NCBI RefSeq assembly: GCF_006345805.1 | Contig: NW_021836526.1 | Location: forward strand, 1-23,762 | Direction of reading: 5' to 3' | Length of the DNA stretch: 23,762 nt | Origin: Octopus sinensis | Taxonomy: Eukaryota | In this document: piece after piece, positions 621 to 23,307 of the stretch | How the letters are laid out: the number at the start of each line of letters is the position of its first letter | Position numbering within the stretch: the stretch's first letter is position 1 | The notes under the pieces: generated by a model | Seen by the model: only the letters and a program-made list of their open reading frames with translations | What the model was told of the DNA's origin: nothing | The model's database searches: none | Translations under genes and position numbers: made by a program

Positions 621-829
621 TATGATATTTGTCATGTGAACTACGATGAAACAAATATGAAAAAGGTGTGGTACATATATTTTTTTCTGTGTAGGGGATT
701 CTTGAGACATGTAATTTATTTTAAGGGTTACGTAAGGGATAAAAAAGTTGAGAAAACCAGCAAGCCTCCACTTGAGAACAATTATTTTTCACAAAAGCAA
801 CATGGTTTCCTACTCTCTTAAACTGAACC

Positions 830-2223: not shown

Positions 2224-3555
2224 TGTGAGACGTTTTGTCACAGCTGTTTTGGCGCCGCCTATTTTGCGTCACTAATTCGACGCTGGCCTATTTCACATCG
2301 CGAGGCGTTTTGGCACAGCTGTTTTGGTGTCGCTAAATCGACGTTAACTTATTTCATTCACATCGTGAGACATTTTGGCGCCGCTTATTTGGTGTCGCTA
2401 ATTCGACGATGAGTTATTCCACATCGTGAGACGTTTTGACACAGCTGTTTTGGCGCCGCCTATTTTGCGTCACTAATTCGACGCTGCCTATTTCACATCG
2501 CGGCGAGGCTTTTGGCACAGCTGTTTTGGCGCCGCTATTTTGCGTCACCAATTCGACGCTGGCCTATTTCACATCGCGAGGCATTTTGGCACAGCTGTTT
2601 TGGTGCCGCCTATTTTGCGCACTAATTCGACGCTGGCCTATTTCACATCGCGAGGCGTTTTGACACAGCTGTTTTGGGCCCGCCTTTTTGCGTCACTAAT
2701 TCGACGCTGGCCTATTTCACATCGCGAGGCGTTTTGGCACAGCTGTTTTGGCGCCGCCTATTTTGCGTCACTAATTCGACGCTGGCCTATTTCACATCGC
2801 GAGGCGTTTTGGCACAGCTGTTTTGGCGCCGCCTATTTTGCGTCACTAATTCGACGCTGGCCTATTTCACATCGCGAGGCGTTTTGGCACAGCTGTTTTG
2901 GCGCCGCCTATTTTGCGTCACTAATTCGACGCTGGCCTATTTCACATCGTGAGACGTTTTGTCACAGCTGTTTTGACGCCGCCTATTTTGCGTCACTAAT
3001 TCGACGCTGGCCTATTTCACATCGTGAGACGTTTTGTCACAGCTGTTTTGGCGCCGCCTATTTTGCGTCACTAATTCGACGCTGGCCTATTTCACATCGC
3101 GAGGCGTTTTGGCACAGCTGTTTTGGCGCCGCCTATTTTGCGTCACTAATTCGACGCTGGCCTATTTCACATCGCGAGGCGTTTTGGCACAGCTGTTTTG
3201 GCGCCGCCTATTTGCGTCACTAATCGACGCTGGCCTATTTCACATCGCGAGGCGTTTTGTCACAGCTGTTTTGGCGCCGCCTATTTTGCGTCACTAATTC
3301 GACGCTGGCCTATTTCACATCGCGAGGCGTTTTGTCACAGCTGTTTTGGCGCCGCCTATTTTGCGTCACTAATTCGACGCTGGCCTATTTCACATCGTGA
3401 GACGTTTTGACACAGCTGTTTTGGCGCCGCCTATTTTGCGTCACTAATTCGACGCTGGCCTATTTCACATCGTGAGACGTTTTGGCACAGCTGTTTTGGC
3501 GCCGCCTATTTAGCGTCGCTGATTCGAAGCTGCTTTATTTGACATGAGGCGTTTT
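2224..3555. repeat. CpG-rich 75-bp tandem satellite, ~17-18 copies
   Basis: TCGACGCTGG recurs at 2701, 2776, 2851, 2926 and 3001. The centre is homogeneous and the ends are degenerate. Confidence 0.95.
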
Positions 3556-3961
3556 GATGTTGGTTCGTTTTGAACCACTCGCTTCCACACTGTTTCCTTC
3601 TACCAAATTCGCTCTCACGGGCAATGATCGGCCCGAGACTATTGCAGTATATATTTGCTCAAGGTGTTACTCAATGGTAATGAACTCGCAACCTCGTGGT
3701 TGCAAAGTCAAGCTTCTTAACCACACGAACCATTTTTTTTTGGGGGGGGGGGGAGGGGGAATCTTATATTTCTGGTTTGTAACAAACCTCTAACATTTAG
3801 TAGTAATATCTATGTGATGTGCAGGTGAATATTGGTGGTGGCCAACTTGGACTGGCATTTGTGGCGTGACCCTGAGTACAAATGCACATGGTTTTTGACA
3901 CTGGTACTGCATCTGCTGCAATTAAATCAGTTGCTGCACATTATCTTATGCAATATTCAAA

Positions 3962-4950
3962 GGCGGCGGGCTGGCAGAACCGTTAGCACGCCGGGTGAAA
4001 TGCTTTGCGGTATTTCGTCTGCCGTTACGTTCTGGGTTCGAATTCCGCCGAGGTCGACTTTGCCTTTCATCCTTTCGGGGTCGATTAAATAAGTACCAGT
4101 TACGCACTGGGGTCGATGTAATCGACTTACTCCGTTCGTTTGTCTGTCTGTCTTGCTTGTCCCCTCTGTGTGTAGCCCCTTGTGGGTAGTAAAGAAATAG
4201 GTATTTCGTCTGCCTTACGTTCTGTGGGTTCGAATTCCGCCGAGGTCGACTTTGCCTTTCATCCTTTCGGGGTCGATTAAATAAGTACCATTTACGCACT
4301 GGGGTCGATGTAATCGACTTACTCCGTTCGTTTGTCTGTCCTTGCTTGTCCCCTCTGTGTGTAGCCCCTGTGGGGTAGTAAAGAAATAGGTATTTCGTCT
4401 GCCGTTACGTTCTGGGTTCGAATTCCGCCGAGGTCGACTTTGCCTTTCATCCTTTCGGGGTCGATTAAATAAGTACCAGTTACGCACTGGGGTCGATGTA
4501 ATCGACTTACTCCGTTCGTTTGTCTGTCCTTGCTTGTCCCCTCTGTGTGTAGCCCCTTGTGGGTAGTAAAGAAATAGGTATTTCGTCTGCCGTTACGTTC
4601 TGGGTTCGAATTCCGCCGAGGTCGACTTTGCCTTTCATCCTTTCGGGGTCGATTAAATAAGTACCAGTTACGCACTGGGGTCGATGTAATCGACTTACTC
4701 CGTTCGTTTGTCTGTCCTTGCTTGTCCTCTGTGTTTAGCCCCTTGTGGGTAGTAAAGAAATAGGTATTTCGTCTGCCGTTACGTTCTGGGTTCAAATTCC
4801 GCCGAGGTCGACTTTGCCTTTCATCCTTTCGGGGTCGATTAAATAAGTACCAGTTACGCACTGGGGTCGATGTAATCGACTTACTCCGTTCGTTTGTCTG
4901 TCCTTGCTTGTCCCTTCTGTGTGTAGCCCCTTGTGGGTAGTAAAGAAATA
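3962..4950 (+). mobile_element. Same SINE, head + 5 tandem ~188-bp bodies
   Basis: 10-bp TSD AATATTCAAA at 3952-3961 and 4951-4960. Head 3962-4008. Units start at 4009, 4200, 4389, 4577 and 4763, each with GGTATTTCGTC. Confidence 0.9.
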
Positions 4951-8422: not shown

Positions 8423-8836
8423 CTCTTTTACTCTTTTACTTGTTTCAGTCATTTGACTGCGGCCATGCTGGAGCACCCCCTTTAATCGAGCAACTCGACC
8501 GCGGGACTTATTCTTTTTGTAAGCCCAGTACTTATTCTATCGGTCTCCTTCGCCGAACCGCCAAGTGACGGGGACGTAAACACACCAGCATCGGTTGTCA
8601 AGCAATGCTAGGGGGGACAAACACAGACACACAAACATACACACGCATACATATATATATATAATATATATACGACGGGCTTCTTTCAGTTTCCGTCTAG
8701 CAAATCCACTCACAAGGCTTTGGTCGGCCCGAGGCTATAGTAGAAGACACTTGGCCAAGGTGCCACGCAGTGGGACTGAACCCGGAACCATGTGGTTGGT
8801 AGACAAGCTACTTACTACACAGCCACTCCTGTGCCT
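8423..8836 (-). mobile_element. Full-length SINE family A
   Basis: Reverse complement of 1493-1900. ~17-bp TSD TATG(C/T)TGATTATATATA at 8406-8422 and 8836-8852. Confidence 0.85.
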
Positions 8837-8856
8837 ATGTTGATTATATATATATA

Positions 8857-15428: not shown

Positions 15429-15489
15429 AGAAGTCCAAATGCCGAAGAAGTCCAAATGCCGAAGAAGTCCAAATGCCGAAGAAGTCCAA
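15429..15489. repeat. 17-bp tandem repeat GAAGAAGTCCAAATGCC x~3.5
   Basis: Seen directly in the sequence. Confidence 0.9.
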
Positions 15490-15968: not shown

Positions 15969-16940
15969 CACAAGGCCTGAAAATCGGACACGGGGATTAA
16001 TCGCTATTGCCCTTAGGAGGTAATTATTTTATGACTACCATGTACAGCTGGGTCCTCCAGGAAAGGAGCACATTTTCAGAGTTGCCTTATTTAATCGGGC
16101 CATAAATATTTTAGCAAGTATTACAACAAGCATTGCTCAACTAAAGGCGGTGCTCCAGCATGGCCGCAGTCAAATGATTGAAACAAGTAAAAGAGTAGAG
16201 TATACATATCTACAGAGAATATATACACACACCCGGATACAGAATATACTCATTACTGTTATAAATAATTTTAATATCTTGAACATTAAGACAGAAAATC
16301 TTTCAAACATACACAGATGCTTAAATACATACATACATAAGATTTTATACATGTGTATAGACAAACATAAGCCTTGTATATTAGAAATATTCATATACTT
16401 AAATGCATCGACACAAGCACACATATACACAGAATTATACATGTACGTAAGCATAGATATAAATGCAGGCATAAAAATATACATTTATCACATACACAAG
16501 CGTGTATGTTCGTGATATAACACAGGATTAGAGAGATAACGAAAAATACAAGATATGACGTCGATAAATATCAGGAGCTAATAATAATAATAATAATAAT
16601 AATAATTTCGGTATAGAAAAAGCGAAAGAGCAGCAGCAACATTGATTAAGATTGCATAGATTTATAGATATTGCTGCGAAGAAGGCCTATGATGTTATCG
16701 TCAAAAAGTAAAGCTGTAAAATTAAAAAAAAAAAAAGAATGTCTCATTAGAAAATTTGAAACAAAATTCAAGAGAAATAAACATGGCTGCCATTAGTTGA
16801 GTAAACAGTAAATAGAGAAAAAAAAATTGTTTTTTTAAAATGTTATCAAGAAACGAAGAGTGGTGTCAATGACCTGCTTTTTATTTGGGAAGATTCTAAT
16901 CTTAGTTTTGATGCCGGGGGAACAAGGAAATTACCTAATA

Positions 16941-17336
16941 CTAGCGGTATCGCCCGGCGTTGCTCGGGTTTGTAAGGGAAATAACTATATAAGCATTTTT
17001 AGAGATGTAAAGTATAATAGCCATCTCAATATGGTTAACCACAAAGGGGGGGTGTTACTGTAGCTTTTTACGTTCTGAGATTTAATAATAAATTTTTAGA
17101 GAGTTACTTCCCTTATATATGCCAAAAATGCATTAAAAATGGGGAAAATTGATGGTAAATTTTTTTTTAAATCGTAGACTCATCGTAGACGCGCGCTAAT
17201 ACCCAGAAGGGCTCGTTATGAATCATGACTATAAGATACCCGGTTTTGGTAAAAATGCACCGCAAAATGTGGGAGTAGTTAGGAATCTAAATCGTAGGAG
17301 ACAGACAGCACACAACCCCACTTTTATATATAAAGA
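16941..17336 (-). mobile_element. Non-autonomous Helitron (~396 bp)
   Basis: On the minus strand it starts TC(TTTATATATAAAAG) and ends CTAG, is inserted between A and T, has no TSD, and carries a subterminal GC hairpin CCCGAGCAACGCCGGG (16953-16968). Confidence 0.8.
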
Positions 17337-17409
17337 TTAGGGAAGACCCAAATGCTAGGTTGTGTTATTAAAGCGAACGAGGCTTTACACTTTACTGGTA
17401 TTTTGCTTC

Positions 17410-18130: not shown

Positions 18131-18278
18131 GATGGCGTGTTCACACTATTTCTTTATTACCCACAAGGGGCGAACGAAGAGGGGGACATAGAACATTACA
18201 ATTAAATTTATGAAGGATGAATTGTTACATGAAAAAATGATAATATGAAAGCGATGCTAAAGGCCCCATCCGTTAGCA

Positions 18279-18548
18279 TCACTTACCTGTCCTTTGGTTT
18301 TCACCGTCACTTGAATGTTCTTTCCCAATACGAATAAATTCCATATCCATTCTTACTCCGAAATACTCATCCATATTTTCCACGAATTCATCGCTCATTC
18401 TTATATCTTTCACCTCCCAATTCTCCCTTTCACACCTCACCATAAACTCATCTATGTTCTTTTTTTCAATCACAGCATACCTAGTCTCACCAACTTCATA
18501 CCATTTATACTCTTCCATTAGACTTTTAACTTCTTTCTGTTCAGTCAT
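18279..18548 (-). CDS. Probable C-terminal continuation of the ORF1 protein (89-aa acidic segment)
   Basis: Adding one base to the G6 run at 18625-18630 gives an uninterrupted read ...TRSPPTRKLKKKNNTDRQEIEIEPRPYICT-MTEQKEV... to the stop at 18279. Confidence 0.6.
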   Translation of the reverse strand: MTEQKEVKSLMEEYKWYEVGETRYAVIEKKNIDEFMVRCERENWEVKDIRMSDEFVENMDEYFGVRMDMEFIRIGKEHSSDGENQRTGK

Positions 18549-18610
18549 AGTACAAATGTACGGCCTGGGTTCGATTTCAATCTCTTGTCTGTCTGTATTA
18601 TTTTTTTTCT

Positions 18611-19699
18611 TTAGTTTTCTTGTTGGGGGGAGCGGGTGGGTTCACTGTCTGCAGGGATAGGGTGGGACTCAGAGGGTGTGGGTGGTTTTGGGGTGGATTG
18701 GTGTTCCATATTATTTTCTTTTCCTCGTATTCTTCTCTTCCTCTTATTTCCAGCTTCCTTCCATTTCTGTGTATTCTCTTCCTCTTCTACTGTCTCCTTC
18801 TCCTCTGGTTTCTGCTTCTCTCTCTGTGGTTCGGAATCCATTTCTTTCCCTGGGGGAGGGCAGAAGGCTCTTATGTGACCCCTCAGGCCACACTTGTAAC
18901 AACGTGGAGCTCTGCCCTCCACCCACACTCTCATGATCACGTCTCCCAATCTGATGCTTTCCGCCAGGTCCACCAGTACCTCGTTCTCTGCCTGCACGTT
19001 CAGCTCCACTGTTACGCCTCTCCAGCCCTCGGTCTTAACCGAGGCATGGAGAATATCCACTTCCTCCTCGTGGCCGCTGATCACAGCCGCCACAATCCAC
19101 TCTGCCTCCACGTTTGGTGGCACTCCCTCCACCCTTATTCGTGTAATCCTTCTATTCAAATACATAGGTAAAAGTGTTACCTTTTCTGACTTCACCGCCT
19201 TCGCCGCCATCTTCCTCGCTGCAGTCTCACTTTTAAAATGTACCACTACGGTACCATACTTGGATCCCCGAGTAAGAAAATTAATTTCCTCCTCAGTTCT
19301 TCTCAGGGCCTCCTCTATCCACTCCATGTTTACAACCTCTATTTTCTTCCTTTCGTTTGCGAACACCCTGTAAATAATGGTCCTCTTATCATACCATTCT
19401 TTTCTCTTGGGTGTCGGTGCCAGTTCCACCTCACCGCTATCCTTTTTCATGTATTTCTGGTAACTTGTTAACTTGGCCAAGTCGACCCCTTTCTCTTCAG
19501 CCTTCTTGGTTACACCGGCATAGGTATAACCCAGCTTCTCGTCCAATTTCCTCGCTGCCATTTCTAGCTCCTTCTCAGACGTAGACAAGTCTGATAAAGA
19601 CTCGAAAACTCCAGCCTTATCTCCCATCAGCTTCATTGTCACTGCCTGTTCCAGTTCCTCATCAGTCGTGGACAAGTCTGTTAGAGACTCATAGTCCAT
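18611..19699 (-). CDS. Gag-like/LINE ORF1p nucleic-acid-binding protein with CCHC zinc knuckle (362 aa from MDYESL; probably ~473 aa after a 1-bp frameshift)
   Basis: Long non-repetitive ORF. CYKCGLRGHIRAFC (CX2CX4HX4C) lies at 18860-18901, preceded by an RRM-like stretch (RIRVEGVP...IMRVWVEGRAPR) typical of L1/Tx1 ORF1 and followed by a basic KRKRR patch. The first ATG inside the TSD is at 19699. Confidence 0.75.
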   Translation of the reverse strand: MDYESLTDLSTTDEELEQAVTMKLMGDKAGVFESLSDLSTSEKELEMAARKLDEKLGYTYAGVTKKAEEKGVDLAKLTSYQKYMKKDSGEVELAPTPKRKEWYDKRTIIYRVFANERKKIEVVNMEWIEEALRRTEEEINFLTRGSKYGTVVVHFKSETAARKMAAKAVKSEKVTLLPMYLNRRITRIRVEGVPPNVEAEWIVAAVISGHEEEVDILHASVKTEGWRGVTVELNVQAENEVLVDLAESIRLGDVIMRVWVEGRAPRCYKCGLRGHIRAFCPPPGKEMDSEPQREKQKPEEKETVEEEENTQKWKEAGNKRKRRIRGKENNMEHQSTPKPPTPSESHPIPADSEPTRSPQQEN

Positions 19700-20496
19700 T
19701 TCCCTCTGTCTGACAGACCGAAAACGGCCGCCAAAAAAGAAAAAGGATGGCGTGTTCACACACAGGCGCCTGTCCTGTCCCCGCCATAGAATGTTTACGC
19801 CTCCTGGTGACTGAATGCAAAAAAAAAAAAAAAAAAGGAAAATTTTGGGTCGGTTTCTTCGACTAAAGTCTTTCAAGGTGGTGTCCCAGCATGACCGCAG
19901 AAAAAAAGATGAAAAGTTAGCTATTTTAGGGGAGGGGGACAATCGGTTCAAGACAGTCCTGCAAGGGTGGAAGGCAAAGTTGACTGCCACAGAACTTCGA
20001 ATCAGAACGTAAAGAGACCGAAGAAGTGCTGCTAACCATTTTGTACGACGCACAAGCAATTGTGCCGCTCACCGCCATAGTTTGAAAGAGGAACGAAGCG
20101 TGGTTAAATATTTTAAATTAAGAAATAAAAACTTAAAAGGAAAAACAGTTCGTTCCCAGATTAACCCATCGAGTTTACGGTCATGAAGTCGCATGTTCGA
20201 ATCTGGTTCACGGTCACAAAGTTACTTATTAGAATCTAGTTTACGGTTCTGAAGTTGAATGTTCGAATCTGGTTTGGAGCTCTTATAACAGTTTACTGAA
20301 ATAGTATCAATATTTGGAATAGTCAGTATCAAAAGAGAATGGCGCATCATGCGATCATTAAATTTTGTCTTCCACGAAAGACATATTCGTTTCTGTTCTT
20401 TAACAACAAGCATTAAAACCTCAATTTAAAAAGATGCAACGTAAAATTATTTTAATATATTAATTCATCCAAAACAGGTTTGCGTGAATGTATGTG

Positions 20497-20539
<43 letters not shown>

Positions 20540-20540
<1 letters not shown>

Positions 20541-20668
20541 TTTATTTAAAGCAGCAGAAATTCAACAAAATCTGTTACTCTGAGTTTCTAGCAAAAACTG
20601 TCCGACGAACGGCAACGGGAAACTCAGAGTAACACGTTTTGTTGAATTTTCTGCTGCTTTAAATAAAG
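20540..20668. repeat. ~50-bp-arm inverted repeat with hammerhead-like centre, embedded in (TA)n; Penelope-like end
   Basis: Arms 20540-20588 and 20619-20668 are near-perfect reverse complements. The spacer has CCGACGA-ACG-GCAA-CGG-GAAACTC. Confidence 0.7.
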
Positions 20669-21633
20669 CATATTACTCTACCACTGGTATTTGAGTACTC
20701 TTTTTTCCACATTGTTTCACATTTATGTGTTTACTCCGGTATATATATATATAAGTTCAGCAAAATTTAGATTCAAATGAATATGGTACTTAAGCTAGAT
20801 GCACCAGAATTTTGTATGGTGTTATCCATATAAATCCATGGGGGTGATTATAATTAAAATAAGCAGCAAGAATATCTTCGGTAATTTAGAAGATAATCTT
20901 GTTACTTATTTTGATTTTATATATATATATATATTTGGATATTATATGTAATTGATGAATGCCCTATACGTCATGAAATATATAAAAATCTGAATAAGAA
21001 CGAGGTTCGTAATATTTTTCCGTTAACGTCCGTCATCACGTTTTCATTCGCAAATTGTTTAATGTGAGACGCCATTAATCCATTAATTCGTAGCATTGTC
21101 ATCCATTTGTTTGGTCGAAGACGTGGAAGGTCGCGCTGATTTTGGAGAACTTTGTTCAAGCATTTGGCATTTTGATAAACATGTTTCATCCCACTGTCTG
21201 GTCGTAACTGTGCACCTATCCGTTGCTGCCGACCACCACAGATAGTATTCAGATTCCATCTTGGAATAGGATTTATGAATTTTACTGAACACGTTACTCA
21301 TTATTAAAAATTTGTGTAGATGGCTGTTATAACGGAAATAAGGGGTCCAATGACTTCCCCGTCTTAGAAATTTGGTTCACTTTGATCTCGTTTAGGAGTT
21401 TGCAACAAAATTAAAATCTTGATTTTTTTAGCAGCTTTATACTAGAAATTCTTTGTTTGTAGAATTGTCGGTAGACGAGTCGGTGATAGAAATGTTGGAC
21501 GAGTCCATTGCTTATGTATAGGAGAAATAAGAGCAAAGGACACAGAAAAAAAAACGAGGTCGCGGTGACTTCGAGTATTTCTTTAGACGAGTGAGGTACA
21601 GATGTTCAGAAAATCCCACACGAATTTTATTAT

Positions 21634-22171
21634 ATATTTATTTATTGCCCCCAGGAGGCTAAACACAGAGGGGACAAACAAGGACAGACAAACGGATTAA
21701 GTCGATTATATCGACCCCAGTGCGTTACTAGTACTTAATTTATCGACCCCGAAAGGATGAAAGGTAAAGTCGACCTCGGCGGAATTTGAACTCAGAGCGT
21801 AGCAGCAGACGAAATACCTATTTCTTTACTACCCACAAGGGGCTAAACACAGAGGGGACAAGCAAGGACAGACAAACGGATTAAGTCGATTATATCGACC
21901 CCAGTGCGTTACTAGTACTTAATTTATCGACCCCGAAAGGATGAAAGGTAAAGTCGACCTCGGCGGAATTTGAACTCAGAGCGTAGCAGCAGACGAAATA
22001 CCTATTTCTTTACTACCACAGGGGCTAAACACAGAGGGGACAAACAAGGACAGACAACGGATTAGATTAAGTCGATATTCGACCCCAGTGCGTTACTAGT
22101 ACTTAATTTATCGACCCCGAAAGGATGAAAGGTAAAGTCGACCTCGGCGGAATTTGAACTCAGAACATAAC
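21634..22171 (-). mobile_element. Same SINE, 3 tandem bodies, 5'-truncated (no head)
   Basis: GAAATACC|TATTTC junctions at 21818/21819 and 22002/22003. Possible 9-bp TSD TTTTATTAT at 21625-21633 and 22172-22180. Confidence 0.8.
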
Positions 22172-22454: not shown

Positions 22455-23307
22455 AGGAGGCAGCGAGGATGGCGAATTAGTAGAAGTGTTCGATCGGTAT
22501 TTCATCCGGCTCTTGACGATCTGACGATCTGAGTTCAAATTCCGCCGAGGTCGACTTTGCCTTTCATCCTTTCGAGGTCGATTAAATAAGTACCAGTTAC
22601 GCACCGGGGTCTCTATAATCGACTTAATCCGTTATGTCCTGTCTTTTTGTCTCATTCTGTGTTTAGCCCCTTGTGGGTAGTAAAAAAGTAGGGTATTTAG
22701 TCTGTCTTTACGTTCTGAGTTCAAATTCCGCCGAGGTCGACTTTGCCTTTCATCCTTTCGGTGTCGATAAAAAAGACCAGTACGCACTGGGGTCGATGTA
22801 ATCGACTTAATACCTATGGTCCTTGTTTGTCCCCTCTCTGTTTAGCCCCTTGTGTGTAGTAAAGAAATAGGTATTTCATCCGGCTCTTGACTTTCTGAGT
22901 TCAAATTCCGCCGAGGTCGACTTTCCCTTTCACCCGTTCGGGGTCAATTAAATAAATACCTATTTCTTTATTACCCACAAGGAGCTAAACACAGAGGGGA
23001 CAAACAAGGACAGACATAGGTATTAAGTTGATTACATCGACCCCAGTGCGCAACTGGTACTTAATTTATCGACCCCGGAAGGATGAAAGGCAAAGTCGAC
23101 CTTGGCGGAATTTGAACTCAGAACGTAACGGGAGACCAAATACGGCTACGCATTTCGCCCGGCGTGCTAACGTTTCTGCCAGCTCACCGCCTTAATTAAA
23201 TAAATACCAGTTACGCACTGGGGTCGATATAATCGACTTAATTAATCCCTTTGTCTGTCCTTGTTTGTCTTTTCTATGTTTGGTCCCCTGTAGGCAATAA
23301 AGAAATA
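22455..23307 (+). mobile_element. Older, more diverged array of the same SINE (3 bodies), the last body interrupted by a nested copy
   Basis: Junctions at ~22691 and 22870 (AAAGAAATAG|GTATTTC). The third body resumes at ~23209 and ends in AATAAAGAAATA at ~23307. Confidence 0.75.
22961..23191 (-). mobile_element. Full-length monomeric copy of the same SINE nested antisense in the previous array
   Basis: 15-bp TSD AATTAAATAAATACC at 22946-22960 and 23194-23208. Head, body and tail are complete. Confidence 0.85.

Follow-up and report, generated by a model that had tools for sequence, protein, structure and literature searches.

In a stretch of 23,762 nucleotides of the Octopus sinensis genome (contig NW_021836526.1 of assembly GCF_006345805.1), hereafter called the window, a protein-coding retroelement and a non-coding SINE terminate in the same sequence. 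Why two such different elements share a 3′ end, and which enzyme copies them, are the questions raised by this locus. LINEs insert by target-primed reverse transcription, and tails shared between elements are established signals for their reverse transcriptases (RTs). A sequence-only reading of the window had proposed a three-part system, in which an unseen autonomous LINE, a coding parasite that has only ORF1 and the SINE all use one recognition tail. From the analysis described here, it is very probable that a tail lacking poly(A) is common to an old, multi-family ORF1-only retrotransposon, the SINE and at least four L1/Tx1-group LINE families, and that it serves them as a signal for reverse transcription.

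The ORF1-only element and its tail

The coding element is an ORF1-only non-autonomous LINE on the reverse strand at positions 18147-19745. The full unit measures ~1.75 kb; relative to full copies, the window copy is truncated at its 5′ end and lacks ~150 nt of the 5′ UTR. It is bracketed by identical 16-nt target-site duplications (TSDs), found on the forward strand at 18131-18146 (3′-end side) and 19746-19761 (5′-end side), and the element resides in an aged and decayed copy of a different SINE (70% identity to positions 1491-1900). The shared tail occupies positions 18147-18188 of the reverse strand. Read in sense, a small predicted hairpin comes first, then an AATAAA-like motif, and the tail stops at a fixed end that lacks poly(A).

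The tail at 18147-18171 was reported to be identical to the SINE end at 1014-1038, which is correct at 25 of 25 nt, and the similarity said to continue beyond this segment amounts to a gapped match of 36 of 40 nt. Since a reversed-pattern control gave 0 matches in the 2.7-Gb genome, this identity is far beyond chance. Ten further near-copies of the 25-mer, with at most three mismatches, are present within the window. Both tails were also said to abut their TSD at the same nucleotide. This holds for position 18147 and for position 830, but not for 1014, which is the junction within a SINE dimer; the true TSD-abutting SINE tail at 830-854 differs from the tail at 18147 at 1 of 25 nt. Compared over 42 nt, the window tail is identical at 41 positions to a copy of a LINE designated LINE-D (G000:C28:5783358) vs. 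34 positions, ungapped, to the SINE; on this comparison, it is closer to the LINE.

One could argue that a tiny, truncated SINE has inserted by chance at the end of an ORF1 fragment, as the SINE is very abundant, with 65,564 exact tails in the genome, and very short insertions consisting of a tail only do occur (locus L183). However, a single TSD brackets tail and ORF together, and the window tail is nearer to LINE-D than to the SINE. Moreover, lack of the tail in other copies of the ORF1 element had been put forward as the observation that would speak for such an accident, and the tail was found in 80 of 81 ORF-stop regions of ORF1-only elements in fetched DNA, the single miss having a decayed tail. 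This figure already refutes the idea of an accident, which retains a practically negligible probability.

The tail could also have been inherited without being a specific signal, if the machinery is as relaxed as that of mammalian L1 and the AATAAA-like motif serves in processing only. The same hairpin was predicted in four of the five tails folded, with weak folding z-scores. Its covariation is not significant (99 of 500 shuffles scored as high), and many SINE and LINE-C copies carry AGTAAA or AGTAAT variants of the end motif, both of which would be in line with an unspecific tail. Against it, the ends are fixed to the nucleotide without poly(A), and the last 25-40 nt are the only DNA common to otherwise unalignable elements and are kept across families whose ORF1s are 31-40% identical. 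An unspecific tail is, therefore, considered improbable, and the tail is discussed below as a putative recognition signal.

The SINE in the window

The SINE at 830-1243, on the reverse strand, is a dimer with a period of 184. Its 3′ unit (830-1013) lacks the first 47 nt and has its tail at the true terminus, whilst the tail of the full unit (1014-1243) is joined to the 3′ unit at a position called site 1. The TSD that flanks the dimer measures 19-21 nt and is found at 809-829 (forward strand) and again at 1242-1262, with its final 2 nt overlapping the 5′ end of the SINE. Two sites in the SINE head are relevant for what follows, i.e., site 1 (1186-1197 on the forward strand, with the break at 1196/1197, SINE nt 47/48) and site 2 (1216-1230, same strand, with the break at 1229/1230, SINE nt 14/15). 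The same SINE forms a five-unit array with junctions at site 1 (3962-4950, forward strand) and a further tandem array (21635-22164, reverse strand). A copy at 22961-23191 (reverse strand) has inserted antisense into another SINE and is flanked by 17-nt TSDs that end in TACC.

No tRNA was detected in the SINE by ARAGORN or Rfam. Motifs resembling A and B boxes are present in the head, as judged by eye, and the body is, also by eye, presumably Deu/Nin-like. Copies of a second SINE family, whose tail is different, are located at 1-310, 1491-1890 and 8516-8839 (inverted pairs I9, I10 and I13). Related SINE families share head and body and have another tail with similar end motifs, which suggests exchange of tails among partners.

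The window contains several other repeats, including a 75-bp satellite at 2227-3557 (15.5 copies, 94% identity), a 17-bp tandem repeat at 15429-15489 (3.6 perfect copies) and a MITE-like long imperfect palindrome between (TA)n tracts at ~20540-20670. A short repeat at ~16940-17340 has ends that we take to be of the non-autonomous Helitron/DINE type.

Four LINE families carry the tail

Blind sampling of 15 stretches (150 kb) yielded 17 tails, of which 15 belonged to SINEs, one was cut off and one was of another kind; as none was coding, sampling on this scale cannot find LINEs. Complete elements with ORF1 and ORF2 were found in the stretches around ORF1-only arrays. Four families, LINE-A, LINE-B, LINE-C and LINE-D, could be told apart, with ORF2 DNA that is 74-81% identical, whilst the ORF1 proteins of LINE-A, LINE-B and LINE-C are 33-40% identical among themselves. 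The tail is present in 30 of 30 copies each of LINE-A, LINE-B and LINE-D; the tails of LINE-C, seen in three copies, are degenerate. Hence, the three classes expected upstream of the tail, i.e., a SINE body, an ORF1-only element and an RT-encoding LINE, all exist, and the tail is shared among them as proposed, with its use by a LINE RT being what we infer. The proposal of one member per class was too simple, as LINEs and ORF1-only elements each comprise at least four families.

Pfam domains in the partner LINEs are Exo_endo_phos, RVT_1 and zf-RVT, and among solved structures ORF2 is closest to human L1 ORF2p (E-value of 1.9e-60 vs. 2e-24 for R2). Judged by an ORF1 plus an ORF2 with APE, RT and a C-terminal zinc region, these LINEs are assigned to the L1 group. 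A quick RT tree, built without a curated Tx1 reference, places the octopus RTs in one branch (100) outside the branch of the L1s that bear Transposase_22; some sequences in this comparison were labelled Tx1-type by assumption, and a literature search did not bear these labels out. Only one homolog had a specific name, the automatic label "Transposon TX1." The designation Tx1 is based on architecture, target preference and this one label, and no named reference fixes it. A Tx1-like preference for a multicopy repeat is seen in LINE-A and LINE-B, but not in LINE-D.

The targets of LINE-D are scattered, with ACAC-ending sites in just 2 of 30 copies. Its copy at G000:C28:5783358 shares a target motif with the closest sister copy of the window element. 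As to LINE-B, 18 of 30 copies adjoin one 17-nt site, and these copies form tandem arrays with a period of 5.4 kb. Tails of a related type were also seen inside (GATA)n microsatellites, at L052:9479-10000 (G000:C10:95439479) and at L041:4137. The former is followed by an ORF2 C-terminus that is 45% identical to that of LINE-C and probably represents another targeted family.

LINE-A inserts into the SINE head

The sequence-only reading had missed a LINE family that targets the SINE head, as well as the SINE array junctions at the same site. The 3′ ends of the 30 best LINE-A matches adjoin SINE nt 47/48, 29 of them strictly and the 30th with a 1-nt deletion, and genome-wide, 117 of 137 exact LINE-A ends come right after the 8-nt site 1. 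In all 20 copies fetched from these 30, the LINE sequence extends over 5.34 kb and is then followed by a short TSD and, on the 5′ side of the copy, the remaining part of the SINE head. Site 1 is located in a predicted hairpin of the SINE head (z-score of −3.0).

Since the 3′ part of a SINE always comes after LINE-A, both might constitute one composite element. The host SINE parts, however, are 88.6% identical pairwise vs. 99.9% for the LINE-A ends, two host subtypes occur that agree on both sides of LINE-A in 20 of 20 cases, and several hosts show their own outer TSD. A composite element would survive these data only if gene conversion after insertion had diversified the SINE parts alone, and it is regarded as highly implausible. 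The difference in identity, the agreement in subtype and the finding of the host subtype without interruption 6,384 times demonstrate that LINE-A copies are independent insertions into distinct SINEs. Rewriting of the SINE head by LINE-A RNA had also been considered, as a G variant was present at 12 of 17 junctions vs. 1 of 24; this was rejected, because the variant corresponds to an uninterrupted SINE subtype.

None of the LINE families agrees with the SINE in tail and target alike. LINE-A inserts at the same site as the SINE, but its tail differs at several positions; LINE-D has the tail, but its targets scatter.

Arrays of SINEs and ORF1-only units

As many as 23,793 of the 65,564 exact SINE tails adjoin site 1, in the same junction as at 1013/1014 of the window. 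In 17 of 39 scored cases of a SINE at site 1, the host unit does not carry this tail and is mostly a related SINE with another tail, which favors insertion into existing SINEs. Where both SINEs have the same tail, they are of the same subtype in 19 of 22 pairs, which favors local amplification too. Among 14 site-1 SINEs with a full head, 13 show no TSD or second head, and none of the 14 examined was a self-inserted SINE with both. The numbers 19 of 22 and 13 of 14 also fit local duplication. SINE insertions outside SINE heads favor primer ends like TAYY (n = 31), and 9 of 10 full-length insertions of this kind have TSDs of at least 10 nt.

Up to ten ORF1-only units follow one another head-to-tail in arrays, often together with units of other families and with LINEs; homogeneous arrays of nine units were seen as well. 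The arrays of one ORF1-only subfamily begin at site 2 (nt 14/15) at four fetched loci (C24, C1b, C5c and C6b), and at a fifth (C5b) an array of this subfamily ends against site 2. The 5′ end of the subfamily resembles site 2. A nested locus at G000:C6:45200681-45216900 holds a single SINE that is interrupted twice, at site 1 by LINE-A and at site 2 by LINE-B together with three ORF1-only units. In a set of 21 arrays, which is contaminated by about five SINE arrays that passed the filter, array junctions resemble the first target of their own array with a score of 0.53 vs. 0.40 after shuffling (0 of 2000). The arrays C9, C5a, C10 and C3a share flanks and possibly do not represent four separate cases. 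At C8, a TSD is sandwiched between two units.

Arrays might be formed mainly by an RT that jumps end-to-end between RNAs or by unequal recombination, with the targeting by LINE-A being real but separate. The prevalence of same-subtype neighbors in SINE pairs, the homogeneous nine-unit arrays and a duplicated flank in the C4 array agree with such a scenario, and unequal recombination between TSDs is cited for SINE arrays in the available part of Martelossi (2024; PMC11481361). It fits less well with the hosts that have a different tail, with the mixed arrays of several ORF1-only families and LINEs, with the TSD between units at C8, and with the resemblance of junctions to the first target of their own array, about five SINE arrays in that set notwithstanding. 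We regard this scenario as possible, though rather unlikely, and prefer repeated targeted insertion as the start of the arrays.

In the three-unit C4 array (G000:C4:36.52 Mb), each unit carries ~120 nt of local flank, which suggests homology-driven duplication at insertion. Another ORF1-only subfamily inserts after TGG, several times in one repeat (L050, L057-L058, L067 and L005); the repeat has what we take to be Mariner-like ends, which echoes Tx1-Mar.

The ORF1-only family and its protein

A DNA search of the own genome, in which 40 of 887 candidates were scored, gave at least 40 near-full-length matches to the window element, itself included, with 91-97% identity. The family comprises several divergent subfamilies, and the main subfamilies account for 155 exact tails in the genome. 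Altogether, at least four ORF1-only families exist, with proteins that are 50-61% identical. The unit encodes no ORF2 or RT, and ~130 nt separate the ORF stop from the tail.

In the window, a frameshift of one base within a run of C near 18625-18630 divides the ORF into an N-terminal frame of 362 aa (18611-19699, reverse strand) and a C-terminal frame of 120 aa (18279-18641, reverse strand). The two are continuous in unbroken copies and represent a single ORF of ~471 aa rather than 362. Amongst 73 ORF1-like frames, 13 are unbroken from Met1 to the C-terminus. The break in the window may be an assembly error, because only 6 of 20 otherwise near-identical LINE-A copies have the 1134-aa ORF2 intact, and the remaining 14 lack it in unbroken form as well.

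The N-terminal region of ORF1 contains an internal duplication of 29 aa, encoded by an 87-nt duplication with 79% identity at 19552-19690 of the window, two predicted RRM-like folds and one CCHC knuckle. A low-confidence full-length model (pLDDT of 46) has the two RRM/ferredoxin-like folds ahead of the knuckle, and Pfam reported nothing in ORF1 beyond a sub-threshold zf-CCHC. The C-terminal domain of ~90 aa, an alpha/beta domain, models well (pLDDT of 81), and no fold match was obtained in PDB, BFVD, a wide VIA search (best Z-score of 4.2) or the ESM Atlas, which does not make it a new fold. That this domain is unique to ORF1-only elements was considered and could not be established, as ORF1 of LINE-A has a C-terminal segment of its own. 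A profile of the domain finds no LINE ORF1 at E ≤ 1. The LINE-A segment shows a weak, in-register likeness to it (hhalign probability of 0.4%) and may, tentatively, be a diverged counterpart.

ORF1 of the ORF1-only family is under purifying selection. The dN/dS of the core is 0.08-0.44 within the main family (seven pairs vs. one copy); between families with unsaturated dS, it is 0.10-0.24, and the values for the C-terminal domain are noisy (0-1.35). Identity of the protein to the ORF1s of LINE-A, LINE-B and LINE-C is 31-36%, and no direct LINE parent was found among the LINE families compared. Just the tail is common to the element and all four LINEs; in addition, a 78-nt 5′ end is shared with a single copy of LINE-B, a possible chimera.

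Public gene models of Octopus vulgaris (P0122-P0126) contain stretches of the ORF1-only ORF. P0122 is made up of three copies of the C-terminal domain and is probably the product of splicing across tandem arrays.

A model for mobilization

The LINE ORF2 enzymes are likely to copy all three kinds of RNA, as judged from the shared tails. The hairpin and end motif of the tail would constitute the signal for recognition and start: the ORF2 proteins would bind the tail and begin copying at its fixed end by target-primed reverse transcription. The ORF1-only element may package its own RNA with its own ORF1p in cis and borrow ORF2p in trans, and SINE RNA would similarly be mobilized in trans by LINEs. 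LINE-D is the likeliest donor for the window copy. The target would be set by the borrowed LINE endonuclease, so that the landing place would differ between subfamilies, being site 2 of the SINE, a small repeat that resembles a DNA transposon or a site that, like that of the window copy, ends in ACAC.

SINE arrays would start with the insertion of a SINE into site 1 of another SINE, after which the identical heads may be resolved by homology. Those of ORF1-only elements and LINEs would start by repeated insertion: the target would be recreated at the 5′ end of each insert, and the elements would, thus, stack. Unequal crossing-over probably extends both kinds of array.

Relation to known systems

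Non-autonomous LINEs that retain ORF1 have been described, i.e., HAL1 in the L1 clade, HeT-A in Jockey and Ag-Sponge in CR1 (Kojima, 2018, PMC5786205; PMC5753468). According to the accessible parts of these reports, they are like the octopus element in encoding ORF1p only, in having LINE-type ends and TSDs and in relying on a LINE for RT. Within the same limits, the octopus element is different in that it comes from a mollusc, belongs to the L1/Tx1 group and has in common with a SINE a fixed tail that lacks poly(A). It also represents an old radiation for which no close parent was found, forms stacks at sites within other repeats rather than at telomeres and has a C-terminal domain without fold match.

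Crocodilians harbor Tx1-Mar LINEs together with SINEU, and Tx1L inserts in Tx1D (Kojima, 2015, PMC4494074). As far as the available text of that study goes, Tx1-Mar/SINEU and the octopus system have in common an APE-type LINE that prefers a site in another repeat, a partner SINE with the same target, a host with two hot spots and tandem insertions that sandwich a TSD. The crocodilian elements, as there described, insert into a DNA transposon, SINEU has poly(A) at its end, and the link between SINE and LINE is the target and head, not the tail. In octopus, in contrast, the partner SINE serves as host and has the tail in common with the LINE, and an ORF1-only element participates as a third party.

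In having a SINE tail that is homologous to a LINE 3′ end and is predicted to form a stem-loop, the octopus system is like the stringent SINE/LINE pairs (PMC3747384; PMC11481361, as far as accessible). The accessible text of Ohshima (2013; PMC3747384) lists three L1-clade SINE pairs only, from plants and an alga, and has Tx1 just in the phylogeny. In bivalves, the SINE partners named in the available portion of Martelossi (2024; PMC11481361) are CR1-Zenon, CR1, L2 and Nimb, not L1/Tx1. The classes L1-Tx1 and tRNA-Deu/tRNA-Core are reported to be abundant or recently active in octopus genomes; in their accessible sections, these repeat surveys provide counts only, and no partner, target site, array or ORF1-only family (PMC13282606; PMC8967140). 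Their repeat libraries may already hold these consensus sequences. A prior description of a LINE that targets the SINE with its own tail was not found in the literature outside subscription journals, supplements, Repbase and Dfam. Each part of the octopus system has a precedent in HAL1/HeT-A or SINEU/Tx1-Mar; the combination was not found in print.

Implications

The findings point to what probably drives one of the most abundant SINEs of octopus, and they add an animal case of tail-dependent recognition in the L1 group, for which the available part of the review cited above lists plant and algal pairs only. They provide a natural set of closely related ORF2 proteins (76-81% DNA identity) with one RNA tail and different DNA targets. 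RNA recognition and target choice can, therefore, be tested separately, which is relevant to site-specific retrotransposon tools. The ORF1-only lineage indicates that an element needs no more than a short tail to persist and diversify, and LINE-A, that a LINE can use its presumed parasite as its own insertion site.

The balance tips slightly in favor of a closed loop, in which LINEs amplify the SINE via the shared tail, whilst the SINE head is the landing pad for LINEs, ORF1-only parasites and SINEs. If so, each SINE copy makes new safe targets, and the loop would partly account for the SINE explosion specific to octopus, in which a third of the exact tails are stacked at one nucleotide.
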